NCBI GenBank assembly: GCA_965247265.1
Contig: OZ252002.1
Location: forward strand, 1,962,565-2,026,564
Source of the DNA: Gammaproteobacteria bacterium
GTDB taxonomy: Bacteria; Pseudomonadota; Gammaproteobacteria; UBA4575
Length of the DNA: 64,000 bases
Reading direction: 5' to 3'
A program made the translations under genes and the position numbers. Shown in pieces: positions 1,381 to 28,388 of this stretch (position 1 is its first letter; each line of letters starts with the position of its first letter). Below the pieces are notes generated by a model. That model was not told where the DNA came from and ran no database searches. It was given only the letters and a program-made list of their open reading frames with translations.

Positions 1381-1444
1381 TAACTCTTTTTAATATCAAT
1401 CAGATAGTTAACTACTCAACTAACTTTAGACGTGATTTTGGCGA

Positions 1445-11846: not shown

Positions 11847-13707
11847 CTACTTCCGGTTCGACCCCAACCGGATCGACCGGCTCCGGCACACCACCGTCGT
11901 CATTGCCAGCCGGAGTAGGCTCGCATATCTCCTTAAGCGAAATGCAGGTATCCCGTAACCATTGCGGGGTTTCGTCCTCGGAACATTGCGCAAGAAAGTC
12001 GGCAATGCCCCATTCAGCCTTCTTCCACTCGAAATAGTCGCGCAGCGCCGCTTGAGCATCAGCTTCCGGATCCGGATGATTTTTCTGAAGGTGTTGCGGC
12101 CAGACAATCAGCCTCACGAAACGCCGCAGAGCGTCATCACGCGTGTTATTCAGGATAAGGTTCTCGAAGCCACTTTCGCCGTGCATGAACAAGGCAACGA
12201 CCTGCGCTCTGATATGATCTCTCCTTTCGTCGGGTTGCCTGTCGCAAAGGGCGAAGGTCTGCTTGTCGAGGCCACTATAGAGATGGGCTAGATCAGCAAT
12301 GTTCGTCTCGCCGCCGGCGTCAATCGTACAGATACCTAGCGCTTCCAGAGAGGAATAGGTGTCGGGATTCAGCTCCGCCATTCGTCGGCACGCGACGGGA
12401 AAAGATGCGGCTTCTGTCGCACCTTCGGCAATGAGAATGCGGCGTGCCAGAAGCCCTCACAAAATCGAGTGTGAAACTCTTGGCGATAGCGCTTTGGCTT
12501 AACGCTCTCGGGAAGAGTGATTGTGGTCTGTCCACGTACCCCGTCTGCATCCCGCGCGAGCACAACTGTCTCGTCGAGAGAAAATTCTTCAAGGACATAC
12601 GGCGAATGGGAAGTAAAAAGTGCCTGCGATGCGAGCTTGCGAACTTCGTGAACAATACGTTTCTGTGCATAGGGTGGAATAGCGGTTTCTGGTTCCTCCA
12701 TTGCAAAAATTACGTTCTGCTTGTCCTCGGCAATTTGGGACAGCATTGCCAGAACAAGCATGTTAATCGTCCCGGTGCCTTGTCGGTAGAATGGTGCTGC
12801 GTGGCTGCCTTCTCCCGTGGCGATAAAGGCCGTGATTACCTTCCGCAGATGCTCGCGCGTAAGGTTGGACACCTTAAGGTGTGGCGTGACTCTCCACTCT
12901 TTCGGCACGTATTTCTTAAGGGCTGCATTGATGCTTTCCAGTACACCGGAGATGCCGAGTTCGGGATCGCTTGCGACGGAAAGGTCTTCGAGCGTACCGA
13001 TCGTATCTTCCCACATCTGCGGCCTGACCTCTTTCAGGCGCAGAATGATGTCAAGGAGACTGCCGCGTTCCAGGCTCAGAGCGCGCGAACCTGTGCGCAG
13101 CGAACGCAGATAGAGGAAGCCGCAGATCTGCTTGTCCCTTTTCGAGAACCCGACGGGCGTGTCATTCTCAGAAAGACTGCGTGTGAAATAGGTCTTCCCC
13201 TCGAAATCGTCTTCCTCCGCCTCGTACCGGCCGATGAAAGTGACCCGTAGCGCGTCGGTGATAGGGGCGGCATCAACCCCCCGCCGGGATGGGATCGTTG
13301 TAGAGCGTGTTGGTCGCCGTATCCCAGAACTCAATGTAGTCGCCGAACCTGTCCCGTTGTTCCTCGGTCAGGGCCGTGATCGTCACCTCAATCTCGATGC
13401 AAGGCGGTTCCATCTCAATGACTTCCGCCGTCGAATCCGCGGGGACACCAGCGTCTCCGGCGTTGACCGCGGCTGGGTTGACGGCAGCATCTGGCGTGTC
13501 AGGAACATACTGCCCTCTAAAGAAATCATGCTCGTCAATAGGCGGCGTACGATTCAGTCGATCCGGCCCGAGCACAAGATCTAGTGCTTCGAAGATTGTG
13601 GTTTTACCAGTATTGTTGTCTCCAATGAAGACTGCGTGATCAGGAAGAAGTAATGTTGCAGATCTTATGCCACGAAAACTTGCTATGTTGATTTGACATA
13701 CTCTCAC
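11827..13707 (-). pseudogene. OLD-family ATP-dependent endonuclease (Gabija GajA-like: ABC-type ATPase plus TOPRIM), split into 3 ORFs by frameshifts
   Basis: N-terminus MRVCQINIASFRGIRSATLLL...IGDNNTGKTTIFEAL (Walker A). Mid ...QGTGTINMLVLAMLSQIAEDKQNVIFAMEEPETAIPPYAQKRIV (signature/Walker B/D-loop). Acidic TOPRIM-like C-terminal ORF 11827..12381. Confidence 0.6.
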
Positions 13708-13753
13708 GAATGCCTCCTTTGGCGTCGGCGATATCGACGGCGGTGTTACTGGT

Positions 13754-14130
13754 TCAAAAACCGATACGTCTGATGCCGTCGACTACGTCGAAATGGCTAT
13801 CGTTGCTCAGAATCGCGAGAGCGTGCTGACGGGCGAGCGCGGCGATCCAGGCGTCATTCGGCGGTATAGGATTGCCGAGCCGCTTCAATTGCAGCCGGAT
13901 ATCTGCATACGCATCCGCCGTCGCTGAGGTGACGGCCGCGATTTCGGCCAGCGGCAAATATCGACGAAGCCATTCCTCGTAGCGGCTTCGATGACGCGAT
14001 TGACGAATGCCGAAAAGTACTCGCCAAGTACGACGCTCGGAACGACCAATCGGTCGGCGGATCGAAGAGGAGCCTCGACGGCCGCGAGCCCTTCCGCCCA
14101 GGCGGAGAGGGCATTGGTATCGAGGATCAT
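13754..14130 (-). pseudogene. vapC: PIN-domain toxin VapC, frameshifted
   Basis: N-terminal ORF MILDTNALSAW... and C-terminal ORF ...NDAWIAALA...DSHFD lie in different frames. Confidence 0.55.
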
Positions 14131-14393
14131 GCGATATCTTCGGGGGCGAGCCTCTCGAATTCCTCCTCGATCACATTAAGGATACGGTGGTTTTCGTCCG
14201 AAAGGTCAGATAGCTCGCCGAACCCGGCCATCCAGGGAGCATCGGTTTCGCCGGCGTGGGTGTCGTTCGCGCATTGGCGGACCTGTGCCTCGAGCGCTTC
14301 GTTGAAAAAGTGTTTCAAAGTGATACCACGGCCGGCGGCAAGAGCCTTGGCCCGGCGGAACGTGGCGTCGGGAACCTCAATGGCCGTTTTCAT
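14127..14393 (-). CDS. vapB: VapB-type antitoxin (88 aa)
   Basis: Small ORF immediately upstream of and overlapping the PIN toxin. N-terminal DNA-binding-like region. Confidence 0.5.
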   Translation of the reverse strand: MKTAIEVPDATFRRAKALAAGRGITLKHFFNEALEAQVRQCANDTHAGETDAPWMAGFGELSDLSDENHRILNVIEEEFERLAPEDIA

Positions 14394-14425
14394 TTCACCA
14401 TATTCCCATATTTACGGATTTGTCG

Positions 14426-15630
14426 TCAATCCGTCCCGGTTGGTGACGCATCGCTGTGCATGGAGGACATTTCGGCGGTGCCCGAGAGATCACCACCGAT
14501 GCTGCCTGTGATGCGTGACGCGGCGTTCCGGATCGAATCCCGCGCCAAGTGAGCATAGCGGGCGGTGGTCTGCACTTGGGTATGACCCAAGAGCTTCCCT
14601 ATCATGGTGAGGCATTCGCCGAGCGCCAGCGCGCGCGAAGCGAACGAATGACGCAAGTCGTGGATGCGCACATCCTCCAAGGCCGGCACGCTTGCGAATG
14701 CGCCGCCAGGGACGTTGCAGGTCGGTCAGATGCGAACCGGGGAGCTTTCCGGCGATGACCCACGGGTTGCCCCGTCGCGGGGAATGGATGACAGTACGGC
14801 GCGGGCCTCTGGCCCGAGCGGCACCACCCTTCCGCCGGTCTTGGTATCCGGCAGCTCAAGGCAGTCTTCCTTGACGTACTCCCAGCGCAGATCTCGGATC
14901 TCCGACATCCGGCAGCCGGTCAGGAGCAGCAGCCGGAAGGCGGACACGGCCGAGAGCATCTCCACCTCGGCCTCGCGAAGAATCTCGCCGAGCCGAGCCG
15001 TCTCTTCCGTCGACAGGAACCGCTCTCGTTGGTGTTCCTTGTACCGCTTCACATGCCGGCAGGGTTTGGAACCATTCCGGCGCCAACCCCACACCTCGGC
15101 AAGGTTAAACATCTTCGACAATACTCCGAGTGTGCGGTTGGCCTGATAGGGCTTGTCCCGAAGGCCGTGATGAAGGACCGCGATGTCCTTGCGTTCGACC
15201 GCTGCGACCTGCAATTCCCCGATCACGGGGTCGATGAAGAGCTTCACCGAGCGGCGGTACTCCGTCTGGGTGCTTGGCTTGCAATGGACCCGGACGTACT
15301 CAACCAGAAACCGGCTGCACAGGCCCGCCATCACTGGCTCGGCCTTGCGCCGCGACCTGGACTCGCGGGGTCGATCCCTTTCTTGGCGTCGGCCAGGATC
15401 TGAAGCGCCTGTCCACGCGCCTCGTCTGGGCTCAACGGGTTGTGTGCCCCGATGGTGAACCAGCGCAGCTTGCCGGCGACACGGGTCTGGACGACGTAAT
15501 ATTTCCGCCCCGATCGCCTTACCCGGACACCGAACCCGGTCAGATCGCCATCCCAATAGACGGCGTCGGAGCCGTTGGCCTTCAGGGCATCGACAGATCG
15601 CTTCGTGAGGCGGTGCAGGCCGTTCGCCAT
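14426..15630 (-). pseudogene. int: P4-type tyrosine integrase, 3 fragments (2 frameshifts)
   Basis: N-terminal arm-binding domain ...SVDALKANGSDAVYWDGDLTGFGVRVRRSGRKYYVVQTRVAGKLRWFTIG (15331..15630). Core (14726..15340). Catalytic C-terminus HDLRHSFAS...LLGHTQVQTTARYAHL (14426..14689). Confidence 0.7.
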
Positions 15631-15807
15631 GACGGAAATCCTCTTGACCGGGAAGAGGGAGTTTGTCAGATTGGCAAACAATTTGTATCAAACCAGAGCG
15701 CGCTCAGGCGTAGCCTTGTCGACACTGAAACACATTAACTACAAGAAATATATGGATTTATTAAACTTCGGAGACTTGTAGAGCATTTCTGTCGTGCATA
15801 GGTGTCG

Positions 15808-15855
15808 AAACTCATAACCTGAAGGTCGTAGGTTCAAATCCTACCCCCGCAACCA
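15808..15855 (+). other. tRNA-fMet 3' fragment (anticodon loop through CCA, about 47 nt); attachment-site remnant
   Basis: CTCATAACCTGAAGGTCGTAGGTTCAAATCCTACCCCCGCAACCA is near-identical to the E. coli tRNA-fMet 3' half. No matching 5' half or acceptor 5' strand lies upstream. Confidence 0.75.
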
Positions 15856-15859
15856 AAAA

Positions 15860-15894
15860 GGCCCGTAACTTCACATGGTTACGGGCTTTTCCCT
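15860..15894 (+). terminator. rho-independent terminator following the tRNA fragment
   Basis: GGCCCGTAACttcacatgGTTACGGGCTTTTCCCTTTT. Confidence 0.6.
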
Positions 15895-16041
15895 TTTCGC
15901 AGCCATGACGCGATTAGCGTCGTGGACGCACAGTGGACGCATGAGGGAGCATAATCCTGCACGTTTCTGCGCGACACCGCGCAGGCCGCCCGACTGAGAT
16001 CGCGCGACGTTGACGGCTTACCCGCTGACCTTGGCAGACGT

Positions 16042-19000
16042 TCAGAACCGCATCTGGCCGCGCAGCATCACGGCATGATCCGCGGCAGCATCGTTGGCCG
16101 GCTCACGGCGCTCGCCCTCGAGGCTGAGGTTGAGCGACGACCCGATCTCGAAGCGGCTGCCGATCCAGTAGCGTTGTGACCCTTCGCCGGCCAGCGAGAA
16201 CCCGCCATAGGGCGTCAGCAGCCCGTGCCCGCCGAGCGCGCCGAAGCCATAGCCAAGCTCGCTGTCCAGCCGCATTTGCGGAACGTTGTCATTGGCCGCC
16301 CTATCGTCGCTCGCCAGTTCGGCGACGTCCTGATCCCACAGCCGATCCACCCCGCTCGCTGTCTCGCCCCAGGTCGGGAAGAGGCTGAACGACAGTCCCC
16401 GCCCTTCGGCGCTCGGGTCGAGGCGGACCGAGCCGCCAAGACCCCATTCCTGGTAATTACTCTGCCCCGTCAGCACCCGGCCGTGTCCCTCGACCGTCAG
16501 GCCCGCGGCTGGGTCGCGATAACGCAAGCTGCCGACGATCTCGATGCCGGTGCCCGTGATCCCGTCGCCCCCGTCATGGCGCAGACCCAGCTCCAGGGAC
16601 GGCGTCAGGGACCCGCCCGAGGCCAGCGCCTGCTCGTGGCTGCCCTCCAGCGCCAACCGCAACCGCCAGGCATTCACCGTCTGCTCTTCGATCAGGCCGT
16701 CGTCGCCCTCGACCTCGACCTGCGCCCACGAGGCCTCGCTCCGGAGCTCGAGCGCCATCGTGCCGCCCGCGATCGGTGATTCATCGGTCATCAAGGGACC
16801 GCTCGCTCCCGCCGCCGCCGTCTTGAGCGTCGTGTCGCTGCGCCTTACCGGGTAGTCGGGGTCGCCATCGCGCACCTGCGCGTCCTCGATCTCGATATCG
16901 CCCCACCCATAGCCCACCGTCGCCCAGAGACCGAGACCCTGTGGCGAGGTCCAGCCCAGATAGGGATGAACGCTGGTCATCCGGCTCTCATAGTCGCCGC
17001 GCACCGGCGACGATCCGGTACCGTCGCTATAGTCGAATTCGCCGATCGAGCGCGACAGCGCGAGCCCGGTCAGGAGATCCTCGCGCAGGCAGCCGTCGAT
17101 GCCGAGCTGGCCGGTCAGCACCGTGCCGTCCCAGGCGAAGGCGGACTCCGTGCTCTCCAGCACCTGCCGCTCGCCCCGGCCCCACACCACCGGCCCGCCG
17201 GCGCCGGGTGCCATGCCGTCATTGGCCGCTGCCGCGAGCGGCAGCCGGAAGGACGAGCCAGCCAGCACATCGGCGAGGGTGAGCGCATCGTCCTCGATCG
17301 CCGGCGCGTTGGATCGCAGCGTGTCATAGAGTGTCGATCCCCCGGCCAGCGTGTAGGCGGCCGCCTGTTTGCCGCACGCCTCGTCCATGCGCGCACCGAT
17401 CGCCCGGTTGGTGACATCGGCGAGGGTCAGCGCGTGCTTGGAGAGAATCTCGTCGTTCAGGCGCCGGAAGCGCGCCTGGACCACGGTGCCTTCAGCGTCG
17501 ACGATGGTCAGGGTGGCCCTGGCCGGTGCGCCTTTCGCCACGTCCGTGGGCAGCGTACCGAAGCCCAGCGCCACCCTCACGTCGTGGAAATTGTCGTCTT
17601 GTTTGGCCTGTTCCGTGGCCTCGATGGTGAAGCTCCTGGTGGTGTCGCCCGTCTCCTCGAATTTGAGCGTGACGGTCCCGGTCGCAGGATCCAAGACATC
17701 CGGATCCGTAACCGTAACCGTATAGTCGGCCGCCACGGTCCGGCCCCGCGGGGTCACCGTGATCGGGATCTCCAGCGCGTCGGCCGCTTGCTTGCTCAGC
17801 GTCACCGTCACCCTGACCGGATCGCCGCCCTCTTCGACCGCATAGGCCGCGGCGCCGAAGCGCACCAAATACACCCGCACCACGCTAATGGCCATGGCGT
17901 ACGCCACGCTGTCGCTCTCGCCGTCACTGACCTTGAACCCGAACGTCGCGAAAGGTTCGCCGTGCGCGTTCTCCGGCGGAGTGTAGAGGAGCTTGCCCGC
18001 TTCAAGGTCGGCCGGCGTCACCTGCCGGGGTAGGATGTCGCTGGTGATGGCCGCGCCGTTAAGCGACAGCGTCCCCCGGTCATTCCCCTCGTCATCCACG
18101 GGCGGCGAGGCGATCTTCACGTGGTGCAGCGTGTCCACTTCGTCGTCTGAATAGGCGAAGTCTTTCATCGTAAAGCGGTACGGTTCGTTGTCGTACGTGG
18201 ACACCTCTTTGCTGGAACCCGTGGGGGGGTTGTTGAACGGCGTGGCGTTCGCGGCGGATGCGTCGCCCTCGCCGGCATCGTTCATCGCGCGCACTGCCAA
18301 CGTGTACTCGGTGCCGTTTTTCAGGCCGGGAACGGTGTATCCGGTGGCATTGGTCTGGTGATGGGCGCTGTTGGGGATGTCGGTGAAGTTATCGTCACCG
18401 TTGATGCTGACCTGGTAGCCGGTGATGGTGCTGTCGTTCGGATCGGCCCAGGTAAGTGTAACCTTGCGGTAACCCGGCCCGACCGAGGAAATCTCCGGGG
18501 CGGCCGGCGGCGCAATTGGCCTGGCGGTCACGGTGGATGCCGGGCCGTTACCGGGATCGTTCACCGCGCGCACCGCAAAGGTGTACTCGGTGCCGTTGGT
18601 CAGGCCGGTCACGGTGTATCCGGTGGGGGGCGCATCGGGGTCGGTGACGGCGATGTTCGCCCACGCAGTGTAGGTGCTGTCGTTGCTGCTCCTCACTTTC
18701 GAGCGGACTTGGTACTTGGTGATCGATCTGTCGCTCGGATCGTTCCACGCAAGCACCACCTGGCCGTCGCCCGGCGTGGCCGAGGAAATCGTCGGGGCGT
18801 CCGGCACCGCAATCGGTGTGGCCCCCACGCTGGAGGCTTCGCCGTCACCGGAAGCGTTCACTGCGCGCAGCTCAAACCCGTACGGGCTGCCGTTAGTCAG
18901 GCCGGTCACGGTGTAGGTGGTGGTGGTCGCACTGCTGCCGCCGATGTCGCTCCAGTCGCCGAAATCGGCGCCGCTCACCCTCTGCCGGTACTGATACCTG

Positions 19001-22000
19001 GTGATGCTGCTGTCGTTCGGATCGTCCCAGGTCAGCACAGCCTGCCCGTTAGCCGGCATGGCCGCGAGGTTCGCCGGGGGGGCCGGCACCGGCACCGGCA
19101 TGGCGTCCACGCTGCCCGCTCTGCCGGTGATCACGGTGTCGTCCCCGGACGTATCCACCGCCTGCACCGTGAAGGTGTAGTCGGTGCGATTGGTCAAGCC
19201 GGGAATGAGCAGGGTCGTCTGATCCCCCGAGCCGGGCGAGAGAAACGTTTCCAAGAGCGGGTCCACGGAGTTGATGGGCGTGTAGTAGGTGCTGACCTTA
19301 TAACGGGCGATCCCGGGGTCGCCCCTGTCCCACGTCAGCATGACCTGGCCCTCGCCCGGCGCCGCCACCAGACCGGTCGGCGCGGGCCAGAGCGGCGTGG
19401 CGGTTTCGGGGGACGCCGCGCCGGCACCGGACAGATTCACCGCCCGCAGCTCGAACGTGTATTCGGTGCCGTTGGTCAGGCGGGTACCGGTGCCGTCGCT
19501 CAGGACGGTCACGGTGTGGGTGGTGGTGGCCGCACCGCTGCTCTCGATATCGATGAAGGTCGTGCCGCCGTCGGTGCTGTACTGGTATCCGCTGACCATG
19601 TTGTTGTCCGGGTCGTCCCAGGACAGTGTGACCTGACGGTCCTCCCCCCCCTCGGCCATGAGGCCCGTCGGGGCGGCCGGAAGCGTCGGCGCGGTCACGG
19701 TAGACGCCGCGCCCACACCGGAAGCGTTCACCGCGCGCAGCTTGAACGTGTACTCGGTGCCGTTGGTCAGGCCGGTCACGGTGTAGGCGAGGGTGTTGTC
19801 CGTATCGTTTTCGCTGATGTCGGTGTCGTCGATATCGGCGAACGTCTCGCCGCCGTCGGTGCTGACCTGGTACCCGGTGATTGTGTCGTCGTCCGGATCG
19901 TCCCAGGCCAGCGCAACCTCGGTGGCGCCCGCCGTGGCCGAGAGCGCCGTCGGAGCGGCCGGCACCGCCATCGGCGTGGCGGTTACGGTGGCTGCGAGGC
20001 CTTTACCCGCATCGTTTTCTGCGCGCACGGCAAACGTGTACTCGGTGCCGTTGGTCAGGCCCATGACCGTGTGTGCGGTGGTCTCCTTGTCGCTGTTCGG
20101 AATCCCGCTGTAGTTGTCGCCGCCGTCGGTGCTGACCTCATAGTCATAGTTGCCGATGGTTGCATCGTTGCTCGGCTTGCTCCAGCTCAGCGCCACCTGG
20201 CCGTCACCCGGCGCGGCCGAGAGGTTCTCCGGGGCGTCCGGGATCGCAATCGGCATGGCGTCCACGGTAGACGCCGGGCCCTCACCGGTACCGTTCCCCG
20301 CGCGCACCTCAAACGTGTAGGTCGTGCCGTTGATCAGGCCGGTCGCGGTGTATGTGGTGGGGTGCGTGGGGGGCGTCGCAAAGGGGTTGGGGCTGGTGAT
20401 GTCCGCCCAGGGGGTGTAGGTGCTGTCGTTGCTGTCCTTCACCTTCCAGCGGACCTGGTACTTGGTGATCGTGATATTGCCCGGATCGTCCCATTTCAGC
20501 ACGACCCGGCTGTCACCCGGCGTGGCCGAGGAAATCGTCGGGTCGGCTGGCAGCGGCGGCGCCACCGGTGTGGCTTTCACGCTGGCTTTCACGCTGGTTT
20601 GGGTGCCGCCGGCTGTGGTCGACCACACCGTGAAGGTATATTCGGTGCCGTTGGCCAACGGATGATTGGGATCGAGGCCAATGGAATCGTCAACCTTCGA
20701 CGGCGATGCGCCAAAGGAGAGGAAAGATGACCAATTTACTCCGGGGCCTTTGGTTGTGAGCGTATAGTCTTTGGCTCCGGGGACGCCCGTCCACTCCAGA
20801 TGGACCCGGCCGTGGTCCGGCGTCGCCACAAGATTCGGCGCGGGCCAGAGCGGCGTAGCTTTATCGCTGGACGCCGCGCCCTCGCCGGAAGCGTTCACCG
20901 CCCGCAGCTCGACCGTGTGCTGCCTGCCGTTGCTCAGGCCGGTCACGGTGTGTGAGACGGTGGTCGCACCGCTGCCGTCGATGTCGGTCCAGTCGCCGAA
21001 AGCGCGGTTGCCCCTCTTCTGCCGGTATTGGTACCCGGTGATCGGGACGTTGCCCGGATCGTCCCAGGTCAGCGCCACCTCGCCCCCGTCGCTGCCCCGC
21101 GTGGCCGCGAAGTTCGCCGGGGCGGCCGGTTTCGCAATCGGCGTGGCGGTCACGGTGGCCCACGGGCCTTTACCGGAAGCGTTCTCTGCGCGCACCGCCA
21201 AGGTGTACTGGGTGCCGTTGATCACGATGTTACCGCCACCATCGCTCAGGAAGACTACGGTGTATTCGGTGGTGGTCGCGCTGCTGTCACCAATGGAGAC
21301 GAAGGTCGTCACGCCGCCGTTGGTGCTGTAGTCGTACCCGCTGATCGTGAGGTTGTTCGGATCGTCCCAGGTAAGCAGAACCTCGCCGTCACCCGCCGTG
21401 GGCATGAGGCCCGTCGGCGCGGCGGGCAGAGCCACCGCCGGTGTGGCGGTCGCGGTAGATGCCGCACCGGTGATCTGGAAATTGGTGAAGGTTCCCGACG
21501 CCGCCCGCACTGTGAAGGTGTAGTTGGTGCCGTCGGTCAACCCGCCAACGGATACGGTCGTCTTATTCCCCGATCCGGACTCGTGCGCATTATCCGAAAC
21601 CTGAGTGTTGGTGCCGGTGAGCGTCGTCCGGACCGCATAACGGGCGATCCCGGAGTCGCCCGTGTCCCACTGCAGCACGACCCGGCCTTTGTCCGGCACC
21701 GCCACCAGACCGGTCGGCGCAGGCCACAGGGGCGTGGCAGTCACGCGGGGCGCCGCGCCGGGACCGGAATCGTTCACCGCGCGCACCGCCAACGTGTACT
21801 CGGTGCCGTTGGTCAGGCCGGTCACGGTGGTGGTGGTGGTGGCCGCGCTGCTGCCCTCGATATCGATGAAGTTCGTGCCGCCGTTGGTGCTGACCTGGTA
21901 TTTGGTGATCGTGTCGTCGTCCGGATCGGCCCAAGTGAGCGCAACCTCCTGGCTACGCGCCGTGGGCGAGAGATTCGCCGGGGGGTCCGGCACCGGCGCC

Positions 22001-24405
22001 GGCGTGGCGATCTTGCTGGAGGGCAGGCCGGTGATGCCGGACGTATCCACCGCCCGCACCGTGAAGGTGTATTCGGTGCCGTTGGTCAAGGTGGAAATGG
22101 TGGTGGTCGTCGTGTTCCCCGATCCGGCCGGGACGTCCAAGATCTCAGGCGTCGCGCCGCTGCTGGTGGCCTGCCAATGGATCCGATAATGGGTGATCAA
22201 GGCGTTGCCCGTATCCCACTGCAATATGGCTTGGCCGTCGCCCGGCTCCGCCGCCAGATTGGTCGGTGCCGGCCACAGTGGCGTGGCGGTAATGGCGGCG
22301 GCCGTACCGCCAGCTAAATCGTTAGCCGCGCGCAGCGCCAACGTGTGTGCGGTTCCGTTGGTCAGGCCGGTCACGGTGTGTTCGAGGGTGTTGTCCGTAT
22401 TGTTTTCGATGATGTCGTTGCTGTCGATATTGGTGAAGATCGTGCCACCGTCGGTGCTCACCTGATATTTGGCGATCGTGCTGTCAGCCGGATTGTCCCA
22501 AGTCAGAGTGGCCTTGCGGTCTTCGCCCTGCGTGACCGAGAGGTTCGCCGGGGCGGGCCACAGGGGAATAGCATCGGCGTTGGCCGGATTGCCGTTTCCG
22601 GAAGCGTTCACCGCGCGTACCCACAATGTGTATTGGGTGCCGTTGGTCAGGCCGGTTACGGTGTAGGTGGTGGTGGTCCGACTGCTGCCGCTGATGTCGG
22701 TGAAGTTCCCGCCGCCGTCGGTTCTGACCTGGTACTTCCTGATGGTGTTGTCGCCCGGATTGATCCAGGACAGCGTGACTTGGCCGTCACCCACCGTAGC
22801 CGAGAGGCCCGTCGGTTCGGCCGGTGGCGCGCGCGGCGTCGCGGTCGCGGTGGATGCCTGGCCGGGACCGGAAATGTTCCTCGCGCGCAACTCGAACGTG
22901 TACTCGGTGCCGTTGGTCAGGCCGGTCACGGTGTGTTCGGTGGTGTCCACACCGCTGCCGTCGATGTCCGTCCACGCAGTGTAGGTGCTGTCGTCGCTGT
23001 CCGTCACCTTCGAGCGGACCTGGTATCTGGCGATCGTGTCGCCGCCCGGATTGGACCAGGACAGCGTGACCGCGCCGTCACCCGGCACGGGCAAGAGGCT
23101 CGTCGGGGCGGCCGGGAGCGTCGCGGCGGTCACGGTGGCTGCTGTGCCGTTGCCACCAACATTCTTCGCACGCACCGCAAACGTGTACGCGGTGCTGCTG
23201 GTGAGGCCGGTCACGGTGTATCCGGTGGGGGGCGCATCGGGGTCGGTGACGGCGATGTTCGCCCACGCAGTGTAGGTGCTGTCGTCGCTGTCCGTCACCT
23301 TCGAGCGGACCTGGTATCTGGTGATCGTGTTGTTGCCCGGATCGCCCCAGTTCAGCGTCACCTCGTCGGTTTCATCCGACGCGGCCGAGAGGTTCGGGGC
23401 GGCCGGAAGCGTCGCGGTGGTCACGGTGGCTGCTGCGCCGTTGCCGCCAACATTCTTCGCACGCACCGCAAACGTGTACGTGGTGCCGCTGGTGAGGCCG
23501 GTCACGGTGTAGCTGTCGGTGCTCGCACCGCTGCCGCCGATATCGGTCCAGTTGCCGTAGTCGCCCGCGCCTGTTTTCCGGCGATACTGGTACTTGGTGA
23601 TCGTGTTGTTGGCCGGATCGTCCCAGGTCAGCGCCACCTCGGTTTCACCCGGCGCGGCCGAGAGGTTCTCCGGCGCCGCCGGGGCCAAGGTGTTCCCCTG
23701 GACCCTGATTTGTATCGAAGTTGAGTACACACCGCCATCATCCTCCCAGCCCCCGGTTCTGTCAGACCGGCGCGTGTAGCGGTGATTGCCGATGCTCCAC
23801 TCTATGGCCTTGCCGGAATCTTCGTTGTCGTTAGCCGTCAGGTTCCAACGAGGTCTGGTTCCGCTACCGTCAAACGTCATGTGCACGAAGTATTGGGTGT
23901 TTCGAGTCAGAGTGGCTACGCCAGGGGCGGTGAATGTCTGGAGTCCCGTCCCTATGTTGGACGGGTTGGTCAAGGTGTATAAGACCGCGTTGCTCGGGCG
24001 ACCCGATCCGGTGGCGGCCCCCACCGTGACCGTCAGGGTTCCACTACCCGGAGCCCCCTGCGTGTCCAACTGGATACTTGATAGGTCGTAGCCCCGCGTA
24101 TTCTGGCCCGTGGTGAACCCCTGAGCACAGTCTAGTTCTATTATTGGTTCAGAACCTTGGACACATGCTGTATGGCCGTGGGTGGTTTGGCCCGTGTTGC
24201 TCACGAGGGTTTGGGCGTGCGCCGGCGCCGTGAAACCGAGCGGCAGCACCACGGCGGCGAGGACTGCGCCGATGATTACCAGCCGTGGGAAAGATCTCAC
24301 GGAAACTATCCCCCTGCACGCGCCTGTTCGACACAACGTCGGGCTACTTGCGTTTTTGGCGTGAATTATATCGTTATTCATGTTCGTCTGCTTGCTTGCA
24401 GTCAC
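16042..24405 (-). CDS. giant autotransporter adhesin (2787 aa): signal peptide, about 18-20 fibronectin type III repeats, Calx-beta-like region, C-terminal outer-membrane beta-barrel
   Basis: N-terminal signal peptide ...LGFTAPAHAQT. Repeats of about 95 aa of pattern LPAAP..L.A.....V.L.W..P....I..YQ.R.......T......TTYTVTGLTNGTEYTF.VRA.N..G.G. C-terminus alternates hydrophobic residues and ends ...AVMLRGQMRF (terminal Phe). About 68% GC. Plus-strand ORFs inside are artefacts. Confidence 0.8.
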   Translation of the reverse strand: MTASKQTNMNNDIIHAKNASSPTLCRTGACRGIVSVRSFPRLVIIGAVLAAVVLPLGFTAPAHAQTLVSNTGQTTHGHTACVQGSEPIIELDCAQGFTTGQNTRGYDLSSIQLDTQGAPGSGTLTVTVGAATGSGRPSNAVLYTLTNPSNIGTGLQTFTAPGVATLTRNTQYFVHMTFDGSGTRPRWNLTANDNEDSGKAIEWSIGNHRYTRRSDRTGGWEDDGGVYSTSIQIRVQGNTLAPAAPENLSAAPGETEVALTWDDPANNTITKYQYRRKTGAGDYGNWTDIGGSGASTDSYTVTGLTSGTTYTFAVRAKNVGGNGAAATVTTATLPAAPNLSAASDETDEVTLNWGDPGNNTITRYQVRSKVTDSDDSTYTAWANIAVTDPDAPPTGYTVTGLTSSTAYTFAVRAKNVGGNGTAATVTAATLPAAPTSLLPVPGDGAVTLSWSNPGGDTIARYQVRSKVTDSDDSTYTAWTDIDGSGVDTTEHTVTGLTNGTEYTFELRARNISGPGQASTATATPRAPPAEPTGLSATVGDGQVTLSWINPGDNTIRKYQVRTDGGGNFTDISGSSRTTTTYTVTGLTNGTQYTLWVRAVNASGNGNPANADAIPLWPAPANLSVTQGEDRKATLTWDNPADSTIAKYQVSTDGGTIFTNIDSNDIIENNTDNTLEHTVTGLTNGTAHTLALRAANDLAGGTAAAITATPLWPAPTNLAAEPGDGQAILQWDTGNALITHYRIHWQATSSGATPEILDVPAGSGNTTTTTISTLTNGTEYTFTVRAVDTSGITGLPSSKIATPAPVPDPPANLSPTARSQEVALTWADPDDDTITKYQVSTNGGTNFIDIEGSSAATTTTTVTGLTNGTEYTLAVRAVNDSGPGAAPRVTATPLWPAPTGLVAVPDKGRVVLQWDTGDSGIARYAVRTTLTGTNTQVSDNAHESGSGNKTTVSVGGLTDGTNYTFTVRAASGTFTNFQITGAASTATATPAVALPAAPTGLMPTAGDGEVLLTWDDPNNLTISGYDYSTNGGVTTFVSIGDSSATTTEYTVVFLSDGGGNIVINGTQYTLAVRAENASGKGPWATVTATPIAKPAAPANFAATRGSDGGEVALTWDDPGNVPITGYQYRQKRGNRAFGDWTDIDGSGATTVSHTVTGLSNGRQHTVELRAVNASGEGAASSDKATPLWPAPNLVATPDHGRVHLEWTGVPGAKDYTLTTKGPGVNWSSFLSFGASPSKVDDSIGLDPNHPLANGTEYTFTVWSTTAGGTQTSVKASVKATPVAPPLPADPTISSATPGDSRVVLKWDDPGNITITKYQVRWKVKDSNDSTYTPWADITSPNPFATPPTHPTTYTATGLINGTTYTFEVRAGNGTGEGPASTVDAMPIAIPDAPENLSAAPGDGQVALSWSKPSNDATIGNYDYEVSTDGGDNYSGIPNSDKETTAHTVMGLTNGTEYTFAVRAENDAGKGLAATVTATPMAVPAAPTALSATAGATEVALAWDDPDDDTITGYQVSTDGGETFADIDDTDISENDTDNTLAYTVTGLTNGTEYTFKLRAVNASGVGAASTVTAPTLPAAPTGLMAEGGEDRQVTLSWDDPDNNMVSGYQYSTDGGTTFIDIESSGAATTTHTVTVLSDGTGTRLTNGTEYTFELRAVNLSGAGAASPETATPLWPAPTGLVAAPGEGQVMLTWDRGDPGIARYKVSTYYTPINSVDPLLETFLSPGSGDQTTLLIPGLTNRTDYTFTVQAVDTSGDDTVITGRAGSVDAMPVPVPAPPANLAAMPANGQAVLTWDDPNDSSITRYQYRQRVSGADFGDWSDIGGSSATTTTYTVTGLTNGSPYGFELRAVNASGDGEASSVGATPIAVPDAPTISSATPGDGQVVLAWNDPSDRSITKYQVRSKVRSSNDSTYTAWANIAVTDPDAPPTGYTVTGLTNGTEYTFAVRAVNDPGNGPASTVTARPIAPPAAPEISSVGPGYRKVTLTWADPNDSTITGYQVSINGDDNFTDIPNSAHHQTNATGYTVPGLKNGTEYTLAVRAMNDAGEGDASAANATPFNNPPTGSSKEVSTYDNEPYRFTMKDFAYSDDEVDTLHHVKIASPPVDDEGNDRGTLSLNGAAITSDILPRQVTPADLEAGKLLYTPPENAHGEPFATFGFKVSDGESDSVAYAMAISVVRVYLVRFGAAAYAVEEGGDPVRVTVTLSKQAADALEIPITVTPRGRTVAADYTVTVTDPDVLDPATGTVTLKFEETGDTTRSFTIEATEQAKQDDNFHDVRVALGFGTLPTDVAKGAPARATLTIVDAEGTVVQARFRRLNDEILSKHALTLADVTNRAIGARMDEACGKQAAAYTLAGGSTLYDTLRSNAPAIEDDALTLADVLAGSSFRLPLAAAANDGMAPGAGGPVVWGRGERQVLESTESAFAWDGTVLTGQLGIDGCLREDLLTGLALSRSIGEFDYSDGTGSSPVRGDYESRMTSVHPYLGWTSPQGLGLWATVGYGWGDIEIEDAQVRDGDPDYPVRRSDTTLKTAAAGASGPLMTDESPIAGGTMALELRSEASWAQVEVEGDDGLIEEQTVNAWRLRLALEGSHEQALASGGSLTPSLELGLRHDGGDGITGTGIEIVGSLRYRDPAAGLTVEGHGRVLTGQSNYQEWGLGGSVRLDPSAEGRGLSFSLFPTWGETASGVDRLWDQDVAELASDDRAANDNVPQMRLDSELGYGFGALGGHGLLTPYGGFSLAGEGSQRYWIGSRFEIGSSLNLSLEGERREPANDAAADHAVMLRGQMRF

Positions 24406-24576
24406 GCTGTCCTACTCACCGGTTACTGGCCCTCGTTATGTGGCCTTCGGCTGGTAATCATACCAAAGGGAGCATTCTCTAGACAGTTCTTAGTCGAACC
24501 TGTCAAGTGTCCTAGCCCCTAAACTTGATCCACATTTTAAGAGAGAATTGTATTTTGTAGTGGCCAAGGGGTTCAT

Positions 24577-24942
24577 ATGCGCAAGCGTTTCAAAGAGACC
24601 GAGATCATCAATCTGTTGCGAGGCATTGAAGTAAAGATAGCCGAAGGCCGGGCCGTGCCGGATGCGTGTCGCAGTGCGGGCGTGAGTGATAAAAGCTATT
24701 ATCGCTGGCGTAAGCTCTACGGCAGTATGGGCAGCAGTGAAGTGAAGAAGTGTAAGGAATTGGAGAAGGAGAACGATCGACTCAAACACATTGTCGCCGA
24801 TTTGGAACTCGATAAATGCATCCTGAAGGAAGCGCTGGATTTTTTAGGACACAAGGGGCAGGTCCCGAACAAGTACGCAAAACGGTCATGCATGTCCGTC
24901 AACGCCTGGGGAGTAGCGAGCGCCGCACCTGTCGTATATTAG
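24577..24942 (+). CDS. IS3-family transposase OrfA
   Basis: MRKRFKETEIINLL...SYYRWRKLYG...ELEKENDRLKHIVADLELDKCILKEAL. Confidence 0.7.
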   Translation: MRKRFKETEIINLLRGIEVKIAEGRAVPDACRSAGVSDKSYYRWRKLYGSMGSSEVKKCKELEKENDRLKHIVADLELDKCILKEALDFLGHKGQVPNKYAKRSCMSVNAWGVASAAPVVY

Positions 24943-25724
24943 ATCAACCTCGCAGCACGCAACGCTATGGTTGCATCCAGAATACTGACAATGAGGATGC
25001 CCTGAGACTAGCCCTGGTTCGTTTGGCCAAGCAGTACGGGTGGTACGGTTATCGCAAGATGACCGCCTTGCTTCGCATCGAAGGTTGGCGCGTCAATCAC
25101 AAAAAAGTCGGACGTTTATGGCGAGAAGAAGGATTGCAAGTACCCAAGCGTCATAAGAAACGTAAACGGCTCTACGACCATAAACATTCCATCATTCGGA
25201 TGCGGCCCCTCTATCCACGACACATCTGGAGTGTTAATTTTGTACAAGATCGACTCATCCATGGTCGCCCCTACAAGATGTTAACGGTAATCGATGAATA
25301 TACCCGGCAGTGTTTAATAGTTGCCACGCAGTTTGCGATGACGTCACAAGAGGTGTTGGAAACACTGAGCCAACTCTTTATTCAACATGGAAAACCCCAC
25401 TATATCCGTAGTGACAATGGCGGCGAATTCAAAGCCAGGCGGTTACAACAGCGGCTCACGCAAGTCGGTGTAGAACCGATTTATATCTACCCCGGCAGTC
25501 CTTGGGAGAATGGATATAACGAACGCTTCAATGGCACCTTACGAAATGAAGTACTTAACCTCGAGGTCTTCTATTCCATCCAAGAAGCACAATCAGTGAT
25601 TAAACAATGGGTGCAACAATACAATCACACCAGGCCCCGTCAATCATTAAACTATCGACCTCCTGTGCCCGAAACCACGACACCTGCTCTCTCACAAGAA
25701 GTGGTACATACCAAGGGGGCTTGA
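24816..25724 (+). CDS. IS3-family transposase OrfB (DDE integrase core)
   Basis: ...RRTCRILDQPRSTQRY...HIWSVNFVQD...LTVIDEYTRQCL...IRSDNGGEFKA...WENGYNERFNGTLRNE. Confidence 0.75.
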   Translation: MHPEGSAGFFRTQGAGPEQVRKTVMHVRQRLGSSERRTCRILDQPRSTQRYGCIQNTDNEDALRLALVRLAKQYGWYGYRKMTALLRIEGWRVNHKKVGRLWREEGLQVPKRHKKRKRLYDHKHSIIRMRPLYPRHIWSVNFVQDRLIHGRPYKMLTVIDEYTRQCLIVATQFAMTSQEVLETLSQLFIQHGKPHYIRSDNGGEFKARRLQQRLTQVGVEPIYIYPGSPWENGYNERFNGTLRNEVLNLEVFYSIQEAQSVIKQWVQQYNHTRPRQSLNYRPPVPETTTPALSQEVVHTKGA

Positions 25725-25759
25725 CATGAGATGGTGACGACTGTGACAGTGAATTTTTA

Positions 25760-26199
25760 TTATCAAAAATTATCTCAATAACTCTTTTACCAGTACCACC
25801 TTTTCGTTTACGAATAATATTTACCCCCATTTTTCGTAAAGCTGGTTGAAGCTCAGTAAGCCTGTTACTAAAAGTAGCTGGAATATTTGGCCATCCTCTT
25901 GGTTTGCGCTTTCCAGCAATTTCCCACTGCATTATTCGATCAATAATTTCTAATAATTCTGATGCCGTACCTATCCATTGATCTTGATTTTTTGAAAATG
26001 TGTATATGGCACTACCTAGTAGAGAGTTTTCAATTGTCACCTGGGCATTATTGACATACTTTTTCATATAAATATTTGTAAATTCATGTTCTTGCCATCC
26101 AAATGCAGGAGAAGCAGCTGTAGCCAATAAAACAAAGTCAGCCATTCGGGGCAGTCTATCTAATCGGGTGTGAGGTAACTCGCGCAGTGCAACAGACAA
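25760..26199 (-). pseudogene. IS-truncated gene fragment (phage/plasmid replication-protein-like; function uncertain)
   Basis: ORF opens just upstream of 26199 and runs into the IS3 right end. No confident domain call. Confidence 0.25.
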
Positions 26200-26271
26200 C
26201 CCTTTTTATAGTGCGCCGAGCATTTTTGGTCTAGCAATATCAAACTCTTTTCAGAAAAGACAATATCTAGT

Positions 26272-26811
26272 TTGTGTGAATCAGGTCATTTTCCTCATGC
26301 AGTTATTGATAGAGCCATTTGGTTTAGAAAATCTATCTCTCAAGCTTGGGTTAATGAAAATTTAACAGAATACTTTGATGGCAAACCTTTTAAACCAATT
26401 GTAATAAATAAAATAAATTACACAGATGGTATCGAATCAATCAAAGATTTAGATTTACATTTCCTGAACGAATTAAGCTGTATAGCAGATCGTTTGTATC
26501 AACTAACTGGTTTACCACCAGGTATTTATTTTTTGATTAAGAGCAGTGAAATTGTCTACATAAGCAAAAGTGTTTGTCCATTTAGTAGAATAAAGTCACA
26601 TAAAACTAACAACAAATTATTTGATCATGCCTATCTATTACCTGCACCAGAAATCTACCATACAGAATTAGAAACTGAATTAATTAAGTTATATCAACCG
26701 CCATTAAATAATGAAATTGCTAAGAAGCTTAAGACTTGGGAAAAGTCTAAATATAAAAATGCACAAACATTAGTTACTAAAGTACTGAAAAATGAAGCTG
26801 TTAAGACTTAA
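26272..26811 (+). CDS. GIY-YIG nuclease-domain protein (phage-associated)
   Basis: ...GIYFLIKSSEIVYISKSVCPFSRIKSHK... is a GIY-YIG-like motif. AT-rich. Confidence 0.45.
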   Translation: MCESGHFPHAVIDRAIWFRKSISQAWVNENLTEYFDGKPFKPIVINKINYTDGIESIKDLDLHFLNELSCIADRLYQLTGLPPGIYFLIKSSEIVYISKSVCPFSRIKSHKTNNKLFDHAYLLPAPEIYHTELETELIKLYQPPLNNEIAKKLKTWEKSKYKNAQTLVTKVLKNEAVKT

Positions 26812-27037
26812 AGATTATCGGTTGCGCTTTTACGAGCATCCAAGACCAGCATTAAAAACGTTAAAAAAATACGTTCGTGATGGCGATTTATCAGGCGGTT
26901 TTATTGATAGTAAAGGATATTATTGGGTAGACTTGGACAAAACCGAAATTGAAAATACTCGTTTAGCAGAAGATATCGAAATCGACGAAATTTTAAAACG
27001 CACTCCTGAAGCAGAAGAACAAATAAAAGGTTTATGA
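26792..27037 (+). CDS. small phage protein upstream of and overlapping the integrase (possible excisionase/regulator)
   Basis: 81-aa ORF overlapping the integrase start by 4 nt. Assigned by position only. Confidence 0.3.
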   Translation: MKLLRLKDYRLRFYEHPRPALKTLKKYVRDGDLSGGFIDSKGYYWVDLDKTEIENTRLAEDIEIDEILKRTPEAEEQIKGL

Positions 27038-28185
27038 ATCCTAGAAAGTGGAAGCACGACTTACCAGATAATTTAACACTGGATGAGTCTAAAGGTCGTT
27101 ATCGTTACTGGCATCCTATTAAAAAAAATCGAACCTGGCTGGGAAAAGATAAAGCCAAAGCTATGCAATTAGCTACAGATTTTAATCTTGCTATTGAATT
27201 ACAATTACAAAAAAGACGAATCGAGAATGGAAATCCATACAAAGTTAAACATCTTGTTAATTTGTTCCGTGCATCTGCGATTCATAACGAGCCGTGGGAT
27301 GATGGCACAAAACGTAATTACGAATTTAAGTTAAATGTAATTAATGATGAATATGGAAATCACCATTTTGTTGCTATTGATCGTTTAGAAATTGATAAGT
27401 TTTTAACACTACGTTGTAAAAATGCTGATACTTGGAATAAATGGCGGTATGTATTCATATTGTTATATCGCTTTGCTATTAGCAAAAAAATAGTCGAATT
27501 TAATGAAGCTGAAGCTGTATTGAAAAGATCGACTAGCAAAAAAATAGCATATAACCGCACTCAGAGAATCCCTTTAACTATAGATCGTTTCTGGAAGATT
27601 CATGATCATGAAGAAACCGAACCTTTTATGAAAGTGGCAATGAAGTTTTCACTGGTAACATTACAATCAAGATTTGAATGTGTAAGTGTAAAATATACAG
27701 ATGAACGAGACGGATTTATTTATATTATTCGCGACAAGACATCTGGTGATTCAGATATGGCCTTTATTCGTATCGAAGTTACCGACCAAATAAAGGAGAT
27801 CATTGGTGAATCACGTAACGATAATGTAGTAACCCCTTACATTGTTCATCGTAAACCTAAATCACGCCAACGTCGACATATAGATAACAAACCACACTGG
27901 ACTTATGTTGAGCCTGATTTTATTACCAAGGAATTTCGCAGAGTAATGTTATTAGCATGTCCTGAATATAAAAATACAGGTCGTCAATGCCCTACTTTTC
28001 ATCAAATACGTAAGCTTGGCGCGAATCTGTATTACGACGGTGGCTACACAAAGGACCAAGTACGCTCACTCATGACTCACACAGACGAGAAAACCACTCA
28101 AATCTATTTAACCACTGGCCAAGTACCAGATAATCGATTTATCAAGGTAAAAGCCTCACTTAAGCTGTCAGATTTTAGAACTTGA
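27034..28185 (+). CDS. int: tyrosine site-specific integrase (383 aa) adjacent to tRNA-Gly
   Basis: C-terminus ...RQCPTFHQIRKLGANLYYDGGYTKDQVRSLMTHTDEKTTQIYL carries the HxxR and catalytic Tyr. Transcribed toward the tRNA-Gly 3' end 127 nt downstream. Confidence 0.8.
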   Translation: MNPRKWKHDLPDNLTLDESKGRYRYWHPIKKNRTWLGKDKAKAMQLATDFNLAIELQLQKRRIENGNPYKVKHLVNLFRASAIHNEPWDDGTKRNYEFKLNVINDEYGNHHFVAIDRLEIDKFLTLRCKNADTWNKWRYVFILLYRFAISKKIVEFNEAEAVLKRSTSKKIAYNRTQRIPLTIDRFWKIHDHEETEPFMKVAMKFSLVTLQSRFECVSVKYTDERDGFIYIIRDKTSGDSDMAFIRIEVTDQIKEIIGESRNDNVVTPYIVHRKPKSRQRRHIDNKPHWTYVEPDFITKEFRRVMLLACPEYKNTGRQCPTFHQIRKLGANLYYDGGYTKDQVRSLMTHTDEKTTQIYLTTGQVPDNRFIKVKASLKLSDFRT

Positions 28186-28216
28186 TCACAGTCGGTGAAC
28201 GGTTGCGCTTTTATAA

Positions 28217-28260
28217 TTTTTGAGTAGACACATAGACACAAAGTTTGTGTCTACTTTGTG
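28217..28260. repeat. nested perfect palindrome between the integrase and tRNA-Gly (GTAGACACA TAGACACAAAG t TTGTGTCTA ctt TGTGTCTAC)
   Basis: 10-bp perfect inverted arms TAGACACAAA / TTTGTGTCTA with an outer 9-bp pair GTAGACACA / TGTGTCTAC. Candidate integrase core-binding site or terminator. Confidence 0.5.
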
Positions 28261-28311
28261 TCTACAGTTTAGAACGTGATTTTTACAAGTGATTGAATTG
28301 TAAAAAGAATA

Positions 28312-28388
28312 ATGGAGCGGGAAACCAGGTTCGAACTGGCGACCTCAACCTTGGCAAGGTTGCGCTCTACCAACTGAGCTATTCCCGC
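28312..28388 (-). tRNA. glyW: tRNA-Gly (anticodon GCC)
   Basis: Reverse complement GCGGGAATAGCTCAGTTGGTAGAGCGCAACCTTGCCAAGGTTGAGGTCGCCAGTTCGAACCTGGTTTCCCCGCTCCA resembles E. coli glyW. The 3' acceptor strand has one extra C (77 nt). Confidence 0.85.

Follow-up and report, generated by a model that had tools for sequence, protein, structure and literature searches.

The window, a stretch of 64,000 nucleotides (nt) from a gammaproteobacterial contig, carries on its minus strand a gene for a putative surface protein that consists largely of fibronectin type III (FN3) modules and ends in an autotransporter-type beta-barrel. The longest possible frame, an open reading frame (ORF) of 2787 amino acids (aa) with a GTG start, extends over positions 16042–24405. 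These coordinates had been given correctly, with the strand left unstated, in a preliminary description of the locus whose observations are partly confirmed and whose interpretation is partly supported by the present analysis. The coding sequence is probably 16042–24300, with a start at GTG 24300, a stop codon at 16042–16044 and a product of 2752 aa, because an AGGGGG Shine-Dalgarno sequence precedes GTG 24300 at a spacing of 9 nt and most homologue gene calls begin at the equivalent residue (Met). Residue numbers below refer to the long 2787-aa ORF. From its N-terminus to its C-terminus the protein comprises a Sec signal peptide, a choice-of-anchor R head, 19 FN3 modules, a cadherin/Big_9-like domain, a further beta-sandwich, a long helix and the C-terminal barrel (Table 1). 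Its composition and its near-identity to genes of other classes and phyla mark the gene as foreign to the genome in which it lies.

Table 1. Features of the autotransporter gene and the foreign segment around it (positions in the window)
Feature	Position	Strand	Basis
Compositionally foreign high-GC segment (52–69% GC), about 15 kb	9480–24500		GC profile; genome 32–43%
Decayed Gabija system: GajA 11827–13707, GajB 10020–11846, each in three frames	10020–13707	-	PADLOC
Tyrosine integrase pseudogene, frame-shifted and truncated; Arm-DNA-bind_3/DUF4102, Phage_int_M, Phage_integrase	14535–15691	-	Pfam
tRNA-Met 3′ half, CAT anticodon loop to CCA, 47 nt, ACTCATAACCTGAAGGTCGTAGGTTCAAATCCTACCCCCGCAACCA; attachment site (att) remnant	15811–15857	+	Sequence read
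GC-rich hairpin with T/A runs on both sides; bidirectional intrinsic terminator	15861–15886		Sequence
Autotransporter gene	16042–24300	-	ORF, Shine-Dalgarno sequence, homologue starts
Outer-membrane beta-barrel translocator, aa 2401–2787, terminal Phe	16045–17205	-	PF03797, TIGR01414, Foldseek
Linker with long alpha-helix (about aa 2306–2340), motif RFRRLNDEILSKHAL	17206–17505	-	AlphaFold2 (AF2) model, alignment
Second beta-sandwich, aa 2191–2300	17506–17835	-	Beta-sandwich in model; weak match to self-built FN3 profile
Cadherin-like/Big_9 beta-sandwich, aa 2056–2190	17836–18240	-	Profile match at threshold; beta-sandwich in model
19 FN3 modules, aa 241–2055	18241–23685	-	PF00041 and self-built profile
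291-bp tandem array, modules 1–3, 2.2 copies, 84% matches	22877–23511		Tandem Repeats Finder (sole array reported)
N-terminal head, aa 65–240, choice-of-anchor R, lectin/jelly-roll-like beta-sandwich	23686–24213	-	
Sec signal peptide, aa 36–64, 29 aa	24214–24300	-	n/h/c regions, AHA cleavage motif
IS3-family insertion sequence (IS), 1226 bp; orfA 24577–24942, orfB 24816–25724	24501–25726	+	HTH_Tnp_1, rve

Domain architecture of the protein

The signal peptide that had been proposed was found at the likely start. Reading of the sequence and its hydropathy identified MRSFPRLVIIGAVLAAVVLPLGFTAPAHA, with QT following the cleavage site, as a peptide with a positive n-region, a hydrophobic core whose mean Kyte-Doolittle value reaches 3.1, and an AXA site, and it is conserved across 21 homologues. 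The head that follows matches the NCBIfam model NF041539 (choice-of-anchor R) with 80.2 bits against a cutoff of 30, residues 28–168 of the 177-aa domain aligning with profile positions 19–153 of 155. Its fold is of the receptor-binding or carbohydrate-binding module (CBM) type, and its best structural matches are phage receptor-binding domains and the carbohydrate-binding modules of esterases. "Choice-of-anchor" domains are defined solely through their occurrence in surface proteins.

The passenger is dominated by FN3 modules. In the whole-protein scan, Pfam PF00041 (fn3) matched 17 stretches with an E-value of 2.6e-180, and a hidden Markov model (HMM) built from the protein itself recovered 19 contiguous modules of 87–100 aa at 69–118 bits each, in agreement with the earlier estimate of about 18–20. 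The same HMM gave an extra weak Ig/FN3-like match at aa 2194–2279. In the first of the two beta-sandwiches beyond the FN3 modules, Big_9 scored 23.6 bits, which equals its cutoff, and Cadherin_3 and Cadherin_5 remained under threshold. The second had been described as Calx-beta-like. This identity has no HMM support, as PF03160 gave no match at E ≤ 10 either in context or with the segment alone; the model gives a beta-sandwich, and a general resemblance of fold remains.

The barrel ending in Phe that the preliminary description had placed at the C-terminus is borne out by several lines of evidence. First, PF03797 (Autotransporter) went unreported in the whole-protein Pfam scan of the 2787 aa, as it does in the precomputed Pfam lists of homologues, and the domains were scanned separately after this omission; the last 482 aa scanned alone matched PF03797 with 44.1 bits (cutoff 26; profile positions 1–205 of 255) and TIGR01414 with 19 bits (cutoff 16). 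Second, an AF2 model of the last 732 aa, computed from a 12-sequence family alignment with a mean predicted local distance difference test score (pLDDT) of 61.7, contains two beta-sandwiches, a 35-residue helix (model residues 251–285, pLDDT 65–86) and a long run of antiparallel strands, of which 12 have a pLDDT of 50–90 and 5 more are predicted in the last 125 aa at a pLDDT below 50. Third, the top 13 Foldseek matches of this model in the PDB are all autotransporter beta-domains (BrkA, EstA, AIDA-I, EspP, Hbp and NalP), with E-values of 2e-5 to 7e-4 and template modeling (TM) scores to the target of 0.4–0.62. The best of them is BrkA (3QQ2; E 1.8e-5, TM 0.59–0.62), and TonB-dependent receptors and BamA rank lower. 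Furthermore, the protein terminates in ...MLRGQMRF, full-length homologues terminate in F or W, the linker motif is invariant in the family alignment (A1), and no POTRA domain was detected. Collectively, in both sequence and fold, the protein bears the marks of a classical (type Va-like) autotransporter with an FN3-repeat passenger.

The 482-aa unit of helix and barrel (window 16045–17490) is widespread. It has relatives in 7,305 representative clusters at 50% identity (E ≤ 1e-3), and in the best 150 of these 7,305 matches it lies at or near the C-terminus and is conserved from end to end, in proteins of 194–7,796 aa, some of them fragments. Among 72,556 plasmids, a tblastn search with the translocator found no counterpart. 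Judged from these profile and homology searches, the translocator appears to represent a large and effectively unannotated subfamily that routine whole-protein Pfam annotation overlooks, and the window thereby flags a large unnamed group of autotransporter translocators of about 480 aa.

Foreign origin, att linkage and mosaicism

The homologue search covered 5.8 billion proteins and returned about 40 close relatives (60–92% aa identity, mostly 2,600–2,790 aa) with a common order of head, 17–19 FN3 modules, cadherin-like domain, beta-sandwich, linker and barrel. Identity is unevenly distributed over the domains; in the comparison with P0012, for example, the head (92%) and the barrel (86%) are far closer than the cadherin-like domain (65%) and the beta-sandwich (56%). 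In a scan of one genome per GTDB species, 66 loci were found, often several per genome and up to six in one Alphaproteobacteria metagenome-assembled genome (MAG). Their hosts include Alphaproteobacteria MAGs, Paracoccaceae, Rhodospirillales, Nitrospira/Nitrospirales, Acidobacteria, Binatia, Thermoanaerobaculia, Pseudohongiella, "Ca. Porisulfidus" and "Ca. Multivorans". Three relatives whose contigs were traced (P0002, P0005 and P0013) come from a single ENA assembly, and a protein of the sponge symbiont Aphanocapsa feldmannii 277cV (P0077) is among the homologues at 41% identity. The naming of the MAGs (isolate names in the style of universally unique identifiers, sponge data notes) and these named relatives suggest that the window, too, may come from a sponge setting, "Porisulfidus" being tied only loosely to a sponge data note. 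An intact full-length ORF is missing in 12 of 25 related loci, and turnover in the family is fast even in the genomes that are probably its home. Among the most similar copies, several in high-GC MAGs (L012, L015, L023 and L061) are frame-shifted or fragmented; the best nt match, at L012 3872–12185, is broken into ORFs of 2256 and 537 aa.

The composition of the gene is far from that of its host, as had been stated before in favor of a high-GC donor. The gene has 64–69% GC and the host flanks have 32–43%, and GC content at third codon positions (GC3) is 0.84 in the gene versus 0.27–0.33 in uvrC, fabH, plsX and other host genes. The host is an uncultured gammaproteobacterium of 38% GC with a 2.76-Mb contig, and its UvrC is 73–83% identical to that of its nearest relatives, which are Gammaproteobacteria MAGs. 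A Legionella-like host, which GC and gene content had at first suggested, was rejected. Together with a tRNA-Met remnant, an integrase pseudogene and a Gabija system, none of which had been listed earlier, the gene makes up the foreign segment of about 15 kb. This segment is composite, with one block at a GC3 of 0.84 and another at about 0.60, and it has an abrupt left end near 9480 at which no repeat is found.

Near-identical copies of the gene lie in other classes and phyla. By blastn, window positions 15811–24499 are 94% identical in nt to a locus in an Alphaproteobacteria MAG (L012) over 8.7 kb; L002 reaches 95%, and L001, L005, L007, L008, L023 and L025 reach 92–94%. These identities of 92–95% span 8.1–8.7 kb in loci of Alphaproteobacteria and Rhodospirillales MAGs, mostly with flanks of 60–70% GC, and a Paracoccaceae locus and a Nitrospira locus follow at 88% and 83%. 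The gene has about 66–67% GC in most copies although the flanks vary from 51% to 72%, with 51–58% in Nitrospirales, a Gammaproteobacteria MAG and parts of Paracoccaceae, and 60–72% in most Alphaproteobacteria MAGs. The latter would be the most probable source pool because the composition of the gene fits their flanks. Identity per 300-nt bin ranges from 74% to 100% in a pattern that is different for every relative, with longest perfect runs of 413–479 nt; therefore, the copies are mosaics of each other and no sampled copy is the donor. To judge from composition and identity, import into the present host was probably very recent and drew on the gene pool of high-GC Alphaproteobacteria that share its community. 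The closest copy by nt identity, L002, lies on a 28-kb contig of low coverage (ctg463775) that also encodes TrbC, a VirB4/TrbE-like protein, a Tn3 transposase fragment, a multicopper oxidase and a phage-type lysozyme, and the contig of the closest homologous protein, P0002, carries TrbC, VirB4 and Tn3 genes. The L002 contig may be a conjugative element and is a candidate vehicle of transfer.

Within the gene, the repeats are less alike than the "near-identical" DNA repeats of the preliminary description. Compared pair by pair, the 19 modules reach a median DNA identity of 69% and at most 82%. No exact repeat of 100 nt or more occurs within the gene; the longest are one of 82 nt, shared by modules 2 and 18 at a distance of 4602 nt, and one of 59 nt, shared by modules 2 and 3 at a distance of 291 nt. 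Of the shared peptides cited in that description, TAWANIAVTDPDAPPTGYTVTGLT does occur twice, whereas RYQVRSKVTDSDDSTYTAW is present exactly twice and not three times, the third copy reading KYQVRSKVRSSNDSTYTAW. The proposal that the repeats might expand or contract holds at one place only. In pairwise alignments with 32 full-length relatives, 14 are collinear with the window protein and 18 are without one unit inside query residues Q292–427; the missing unit has 97–99 aa (291 bp), except in P0037, which is without 159 aa (Q253–411). No other module-sized gap (≥40 aa) was found against the 32 relatives, and the remaining 16 modules are collinear in all of them. Repeat-mediated gain and loss is real but limited to one unit in modules 1–3, and the rest of the stalk is stable in length.

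A tRNA-Met 3′ half forms the end of the 8.7-kb block common to other genomes. Its 47 nt recur with 91–100% identity in at least 12 further loci, Nitrospira included, about 30–250 bp (mostly about 190 bp) beyond the stop codon. A tyrosine integrase usually comes next; two types of it occur, in either orientation. No complete tRNA was found at the fragment in the window, where ARAGORN made no call and Rfam over 13.5–29 kb gave tRNA-Gly only; among 11 related loci scanned, 10 have no tRNA and L008 has a tRNA-Leu. As in genomic islands, a tyrosine integrase adjoins the tRNA-derived att site (14535–15691 next to 15811–15857), and this integrase pseudogene is 66–70% identical in nt to integrases beside homologues in L031, L015, L061, L022, L017 and L012. 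Neither a second att copy nor a tRNA-Met gene was found inside the window; therefore, the present location does not result from site-specific integration at tRNA-Met. An attP junction, or a tandem series of inserted islands, has this order of gene, att and integrase. Islands that target tRNA genes, P4-type integrases, and the accretion of cis-mobilizable elements (CIMEs) and integrative and conjugative elements (ICEs) as described in Streptococcus thermophilus provide the closest models. The window resembles them in having a DUF4102-type tyrosine integrase next to a tRNA 3′ half and in the order of gene, att and integrase, and is unlike them in that there is one att copy, the insertion is not at a tRNA-Met gene and the integrase is dead.

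It is possible, as a tentative extension of these findings, that the gene, the tRNA-Met pseudo-att and the terminator form a discrete cis-mobilizable cassette that hitchhikes with tRNA-Met-specific integrases. If so, any integrative element specific for tRNA-Met could land beside the gene, which would explain why two integrase types occur there in both orientations. Imprecise or tandem excision would then move the cassette between genomes and spread a host-attachment factor across classes and phyla in one animal microbiome, and recombination among resident copies would keep producing mosaic surface variants. Inverted pairs of the tRNA-Met fragment are present in two Alphaproteobacteria MAGs: at L017 12554–14561 the pair encloses the integrase gene alone (about 2 kb), and at L061 3104–11242 it encloses a decayed autotransporter copy with outward-facing integrases on both sides. 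Simple island integration does not account for these pairs.

At the other end of the block, homology to L012 ends at 24499 and the IS3 element begins at 24501, joining high-GC DNA to a low-GC island. The element (orfA, 54 bits to HTH_Tnp_1; orfB, 62 bits to rve and 89 bits to rve_3) is present as a single copy in the window. Its ends read TGTCAAG... and ...CTTGACA, and the terminal repeats agree over about 7 nt and a C-rich patch only. No target-site duplication was found in its flanks, GTCGAACC and TGAGATGG; therefore, IS3 marks a junction made by rearrangement and not a simple insertion. The element is transcribed away from the gene, as reported before, at a distance of 95 bp from the long-ORF GTG 24405 (and not 115 bp) and of about 200 bp from the likely start.

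Proposed role, alternatives and known systems

The explanation that best accounts for the whole, to which we assign a probability of about 0.8, is that of an imported, surface-displayed autotransporter with an FN3 stalk. In this mechanism, the signal peptide would direct the protein through Sec, and the beta-barrel assembly machinery (BAM) would insert the C-terminal barrel in the outer membrane with the long helix threading its pore. The passenger would be displayed as a stalk of 19 FN3 modules and two further beta-sandwiches, roughly 70 nm long if each FN3 module spans 3.5–4 nm, and the lectin-like head at its tip would bind a ligand. Adhesive function is suggested by the architecture, and attachment to the matrix of an animal host or to other cells would be its most likely role. 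The gene would have arrived as the 8.7-kb block (15811–24499) that ends at the tRNA-Met att remnant next to the tyrosine integrase, and this block would now be fixed in a chromosomal island region beside IS3. Copies of the family would recombine into mosaic alleles, with one 291-bp FN3 unit near the 5′ end gained or lost.

Several points weigh against this explanation. First, the neighboring foreign genes are all pseudogenes, about half of the related loci hold broken copies, IS3 cuts off the upstream DNA some 200 bp before the start codon, and no sigma-70-like promoter was found upstream of the gene, a result that is uninformative for a gene of alphaproteobacterial origin. Second, the AF2 model of the C-terminus is of moderate confidence, and 12 confident strands with 5 of low confidence do not establish a 12-stranded barrel. 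The translocator unit is far longer than classical ones, Pfam aligns it to only 205 of 255 positions, searches of PDB sequences with the C-terminus (single sequence and profile) gave chance matches and no autotransporter, and the passenger is a string of FN3 modules instead of the usual beta-helix. Third, the direction of transfer is read from composition only, the actual donor is not among the sampled copies, and the sponge origin is suggested by names and is not documented.

The strongest of the alternatives, which we regard as possible though clearly less probable, is that the gene, although rightly recognized, arrived recently and does not function, being either unexpressed or poorly translated and on a course of decay like its neighbors. 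GajA, GajB and the integrase of the foreign segment are all frame-shifted, a GC3 of 0.84 against about 0.3 in the host implies severe codon mismatch, and the position of IS3, the missing promoter-like site and the 12 of 25 related loci with no intact ORF all point the same way. However, every other gene of the foreign segment is broken and the 8.26-kb frame is wholly intact, with a conserved signal peptide, a Shine-Dalgarno sequence and a terminator; about 175–200 bp of native upstream DNA is retained; and the neighboring block, with its GC3 of 0.60, must have had another history, probably an older one. The 61 substitutions found in the window copy alone bear on both sides. They comprise 48 changes from GC to AT and 10 from AT to GC, a ratio of 4.8 compared to 1.3–1.7 in four controls and to 3.4 and 11 in two further controls with small samples, a skew that is no more than suggestive of residence under AT-biased mutation. 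Synonymous changes account for 30 of the 61 (49%) versus a neutral expectation of 34% (95% range 22–47%). This weak skew speaks for weak constraint, yet it lies just over the neutral 97.5th percentile, and the changes may predate the transfer. The private substitutions suggest some time under AT-biased mutation and weak purifying selection, and they are not decisive.

Somewhat less probable is the alternative that the protein is a surface autotransporter but no adhesin for an animal host, serving instead in aggregation or a biofilm matrix, in polysaccharide feeding, or as a decoy or shield against phages or phagocytosis. The structural matches of the head to phage receptor-binding domains and esterase CBMs fit such roles, the choice-of-anchor family denotes surface location only, and mosaic diversification would suit an arms race with phage or a host no less than it suits adhesion. 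On the other hand, the published reading of symbiont-enriched FN3 and cadherin proteins favors attachment to the host (PMC6506613, PMC8163846). We consider it improbable that the C-terminal unit is an outer-membrane translocator of another kind, with more than 12 strands or of another type V subclass. The conservation of about 480 aa from end to end in the best 150 listed of thousands of relatives, a model with up to 17 strands, the partial Pfam alignment and the moderate TM scores would be consistent with it; against it, the top fold matches are all type Va barrels, ahead of BamA, TpsB and TonB-dependent receptors, both curated autotransporter HMMs score above their cutoffs, the helix ahead of the barrel matches the type Va arrangement, no POTRA domain was detected, and the barrel lies at the C-terminus, whereas that of type Ve is N-terminal. 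Least of all do we credit the view that the high-GC segment is a chimera of metagenome assembly that does not belong to the low-GC genome: the sequence comes from an assembly of MAG type, the jump in composition is extreme, one junction falls at an IS element, where mis-joins typically arise, and the protein has no exact record under the long-ORF start, but host-like low-GC DNA on both sides (1–9.4 kb and 25.7–64 kb) would require two independent mis-joins in a contig of 2.76 Mb, the single IS3 copy offers no local repeat for one, the left junction is not at a repeat, and the excess of GC-to-AT changes fits AT-biased residence, two control copies being skewed too.

Compared to known systems, the imported FN3-stalk autotransporter shows both shared and distinct features. 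First, like the type Va adhesins and translocators AIDA-I, BrkA, EspP, Hbp and NalP, it combines a signal peptide, a barrel matching PF03797 and TIGR01414, a preceding helix and a terminal aromatic residue, and these proteins provide its best fold matches. Unlike them, it has a passenger of FN3/Ig-type beta-sandwiches, a translocator of about 480 aa compared to about 280–300 aa, and no detectable sequence similarity to solved autotransporters. Second, Burgsdorf et al. 2019 (PMC6506613) reported FN3 proteins with cadherin, cadherin-like and autotransporter domains, for example 277cV_123, from "Ca. Synechococcus feldmannii" 277cV, a sponge symbiont. In those eukaryotic-like proteins, as in the window protein, numerous FN3 modules are combined with cadherin-like domains and an autotransporter domain at the C-terminus, and both are found in symbiont-type MAGs. 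Unlike the proteins of 277cV type, the window protein belongs to a tight subfamily of fixed order, in which a choice-of-anchor R head is followed by 18–19 FN3 modules, the Big_9/cadherin-like domain, a beta-sandwich and the long translocator, and its gene is an obvious recent import in a low-GC gammaproteobacterium; the portion of that paper dealing with these proteins describes no mobility, att/integrase linkage or mosaicism (PMC6506613). Third, laterally transferred genes in sponge-associated MAGs include attachment genes with cadherin and fibronectin III domains (Robbins et al. 2021, PMC8163846). The sharing of FN3 and cadherin genes across lineages of one community at high identity is common to both cases, with 83–95% nt identity across Gammaproteobacteria, Alphaproteobacteria and Nitrospirota for the window; the transfers of Robbins et al. 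are statistical, from sets of MAGs, whereas the window resolves block, boundaries, composition and mosaic at the nucleotide level.

Both the architecture and the lateral transfer of FN3 genes are already known, and the window is a sharply resolved instance and no new kind of system. New here are the boundaries of the block, the linkage to att and integrase, the unameliorated composition, the mosaicism of alleles and the single unstable module. The locus provides an unusually clean case, at the nucleotide level, of an 8.3-kb surface-protein gene that crossed classes and phyla about 30 GC points apart and stayed intact, and one on which the spread and diversification of the "eukaryotic-like" attachment proteins of symbionts could be tested.

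Other elements in the window

The Gabija system of the foreign segment is complete but decayed, with a GC3 of about 0.60 that is unlike both the host and the autotransporter gene. GajA matches PDLC00086 in pieces covering profile positions 1–112, 114–392 and 416–580, and GajB matches PDLC00104 in pieces covering positions 2–70, 112–440 and 457–572. At the left junction, a 324-aa ORF of host-like composition (8487–9461) abuts the segment; it has no Pfam match, and its C-terminal 40 or so residues resemble read-through into the junction sequence. Beyond IS3, the low-GC island (29–40% GC, 25600–28388) carries a lambda-type integrase (27034–28185) beside a tRNA-Gly(GCC) at 28313–28388. An ORF at 25600–26199 is truncated by IS3, and Pfam gave no match for this ORF or for that at 26272–26811.

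A second foreign island, without an integrase, occupies window positions 1307–5534. The tRNA-Cys at 1307–1380 (minus strand) has a 37-nt partial copy, 95% identical, at 5498–5534, and the pair encloses about 4 kb of 53–56% GC and a GC3 of 0.60. Its genes encode an HD/DUF4202 protein (2112–2687), a myo-inositol-1-phosphate synthase (3941–5116) and a fused nucleotidyltransferase/CDP-alcohol phosphatidyltransferase (2671–3996), which we take to be di-myo-inositol-phosphate-synthase-like.

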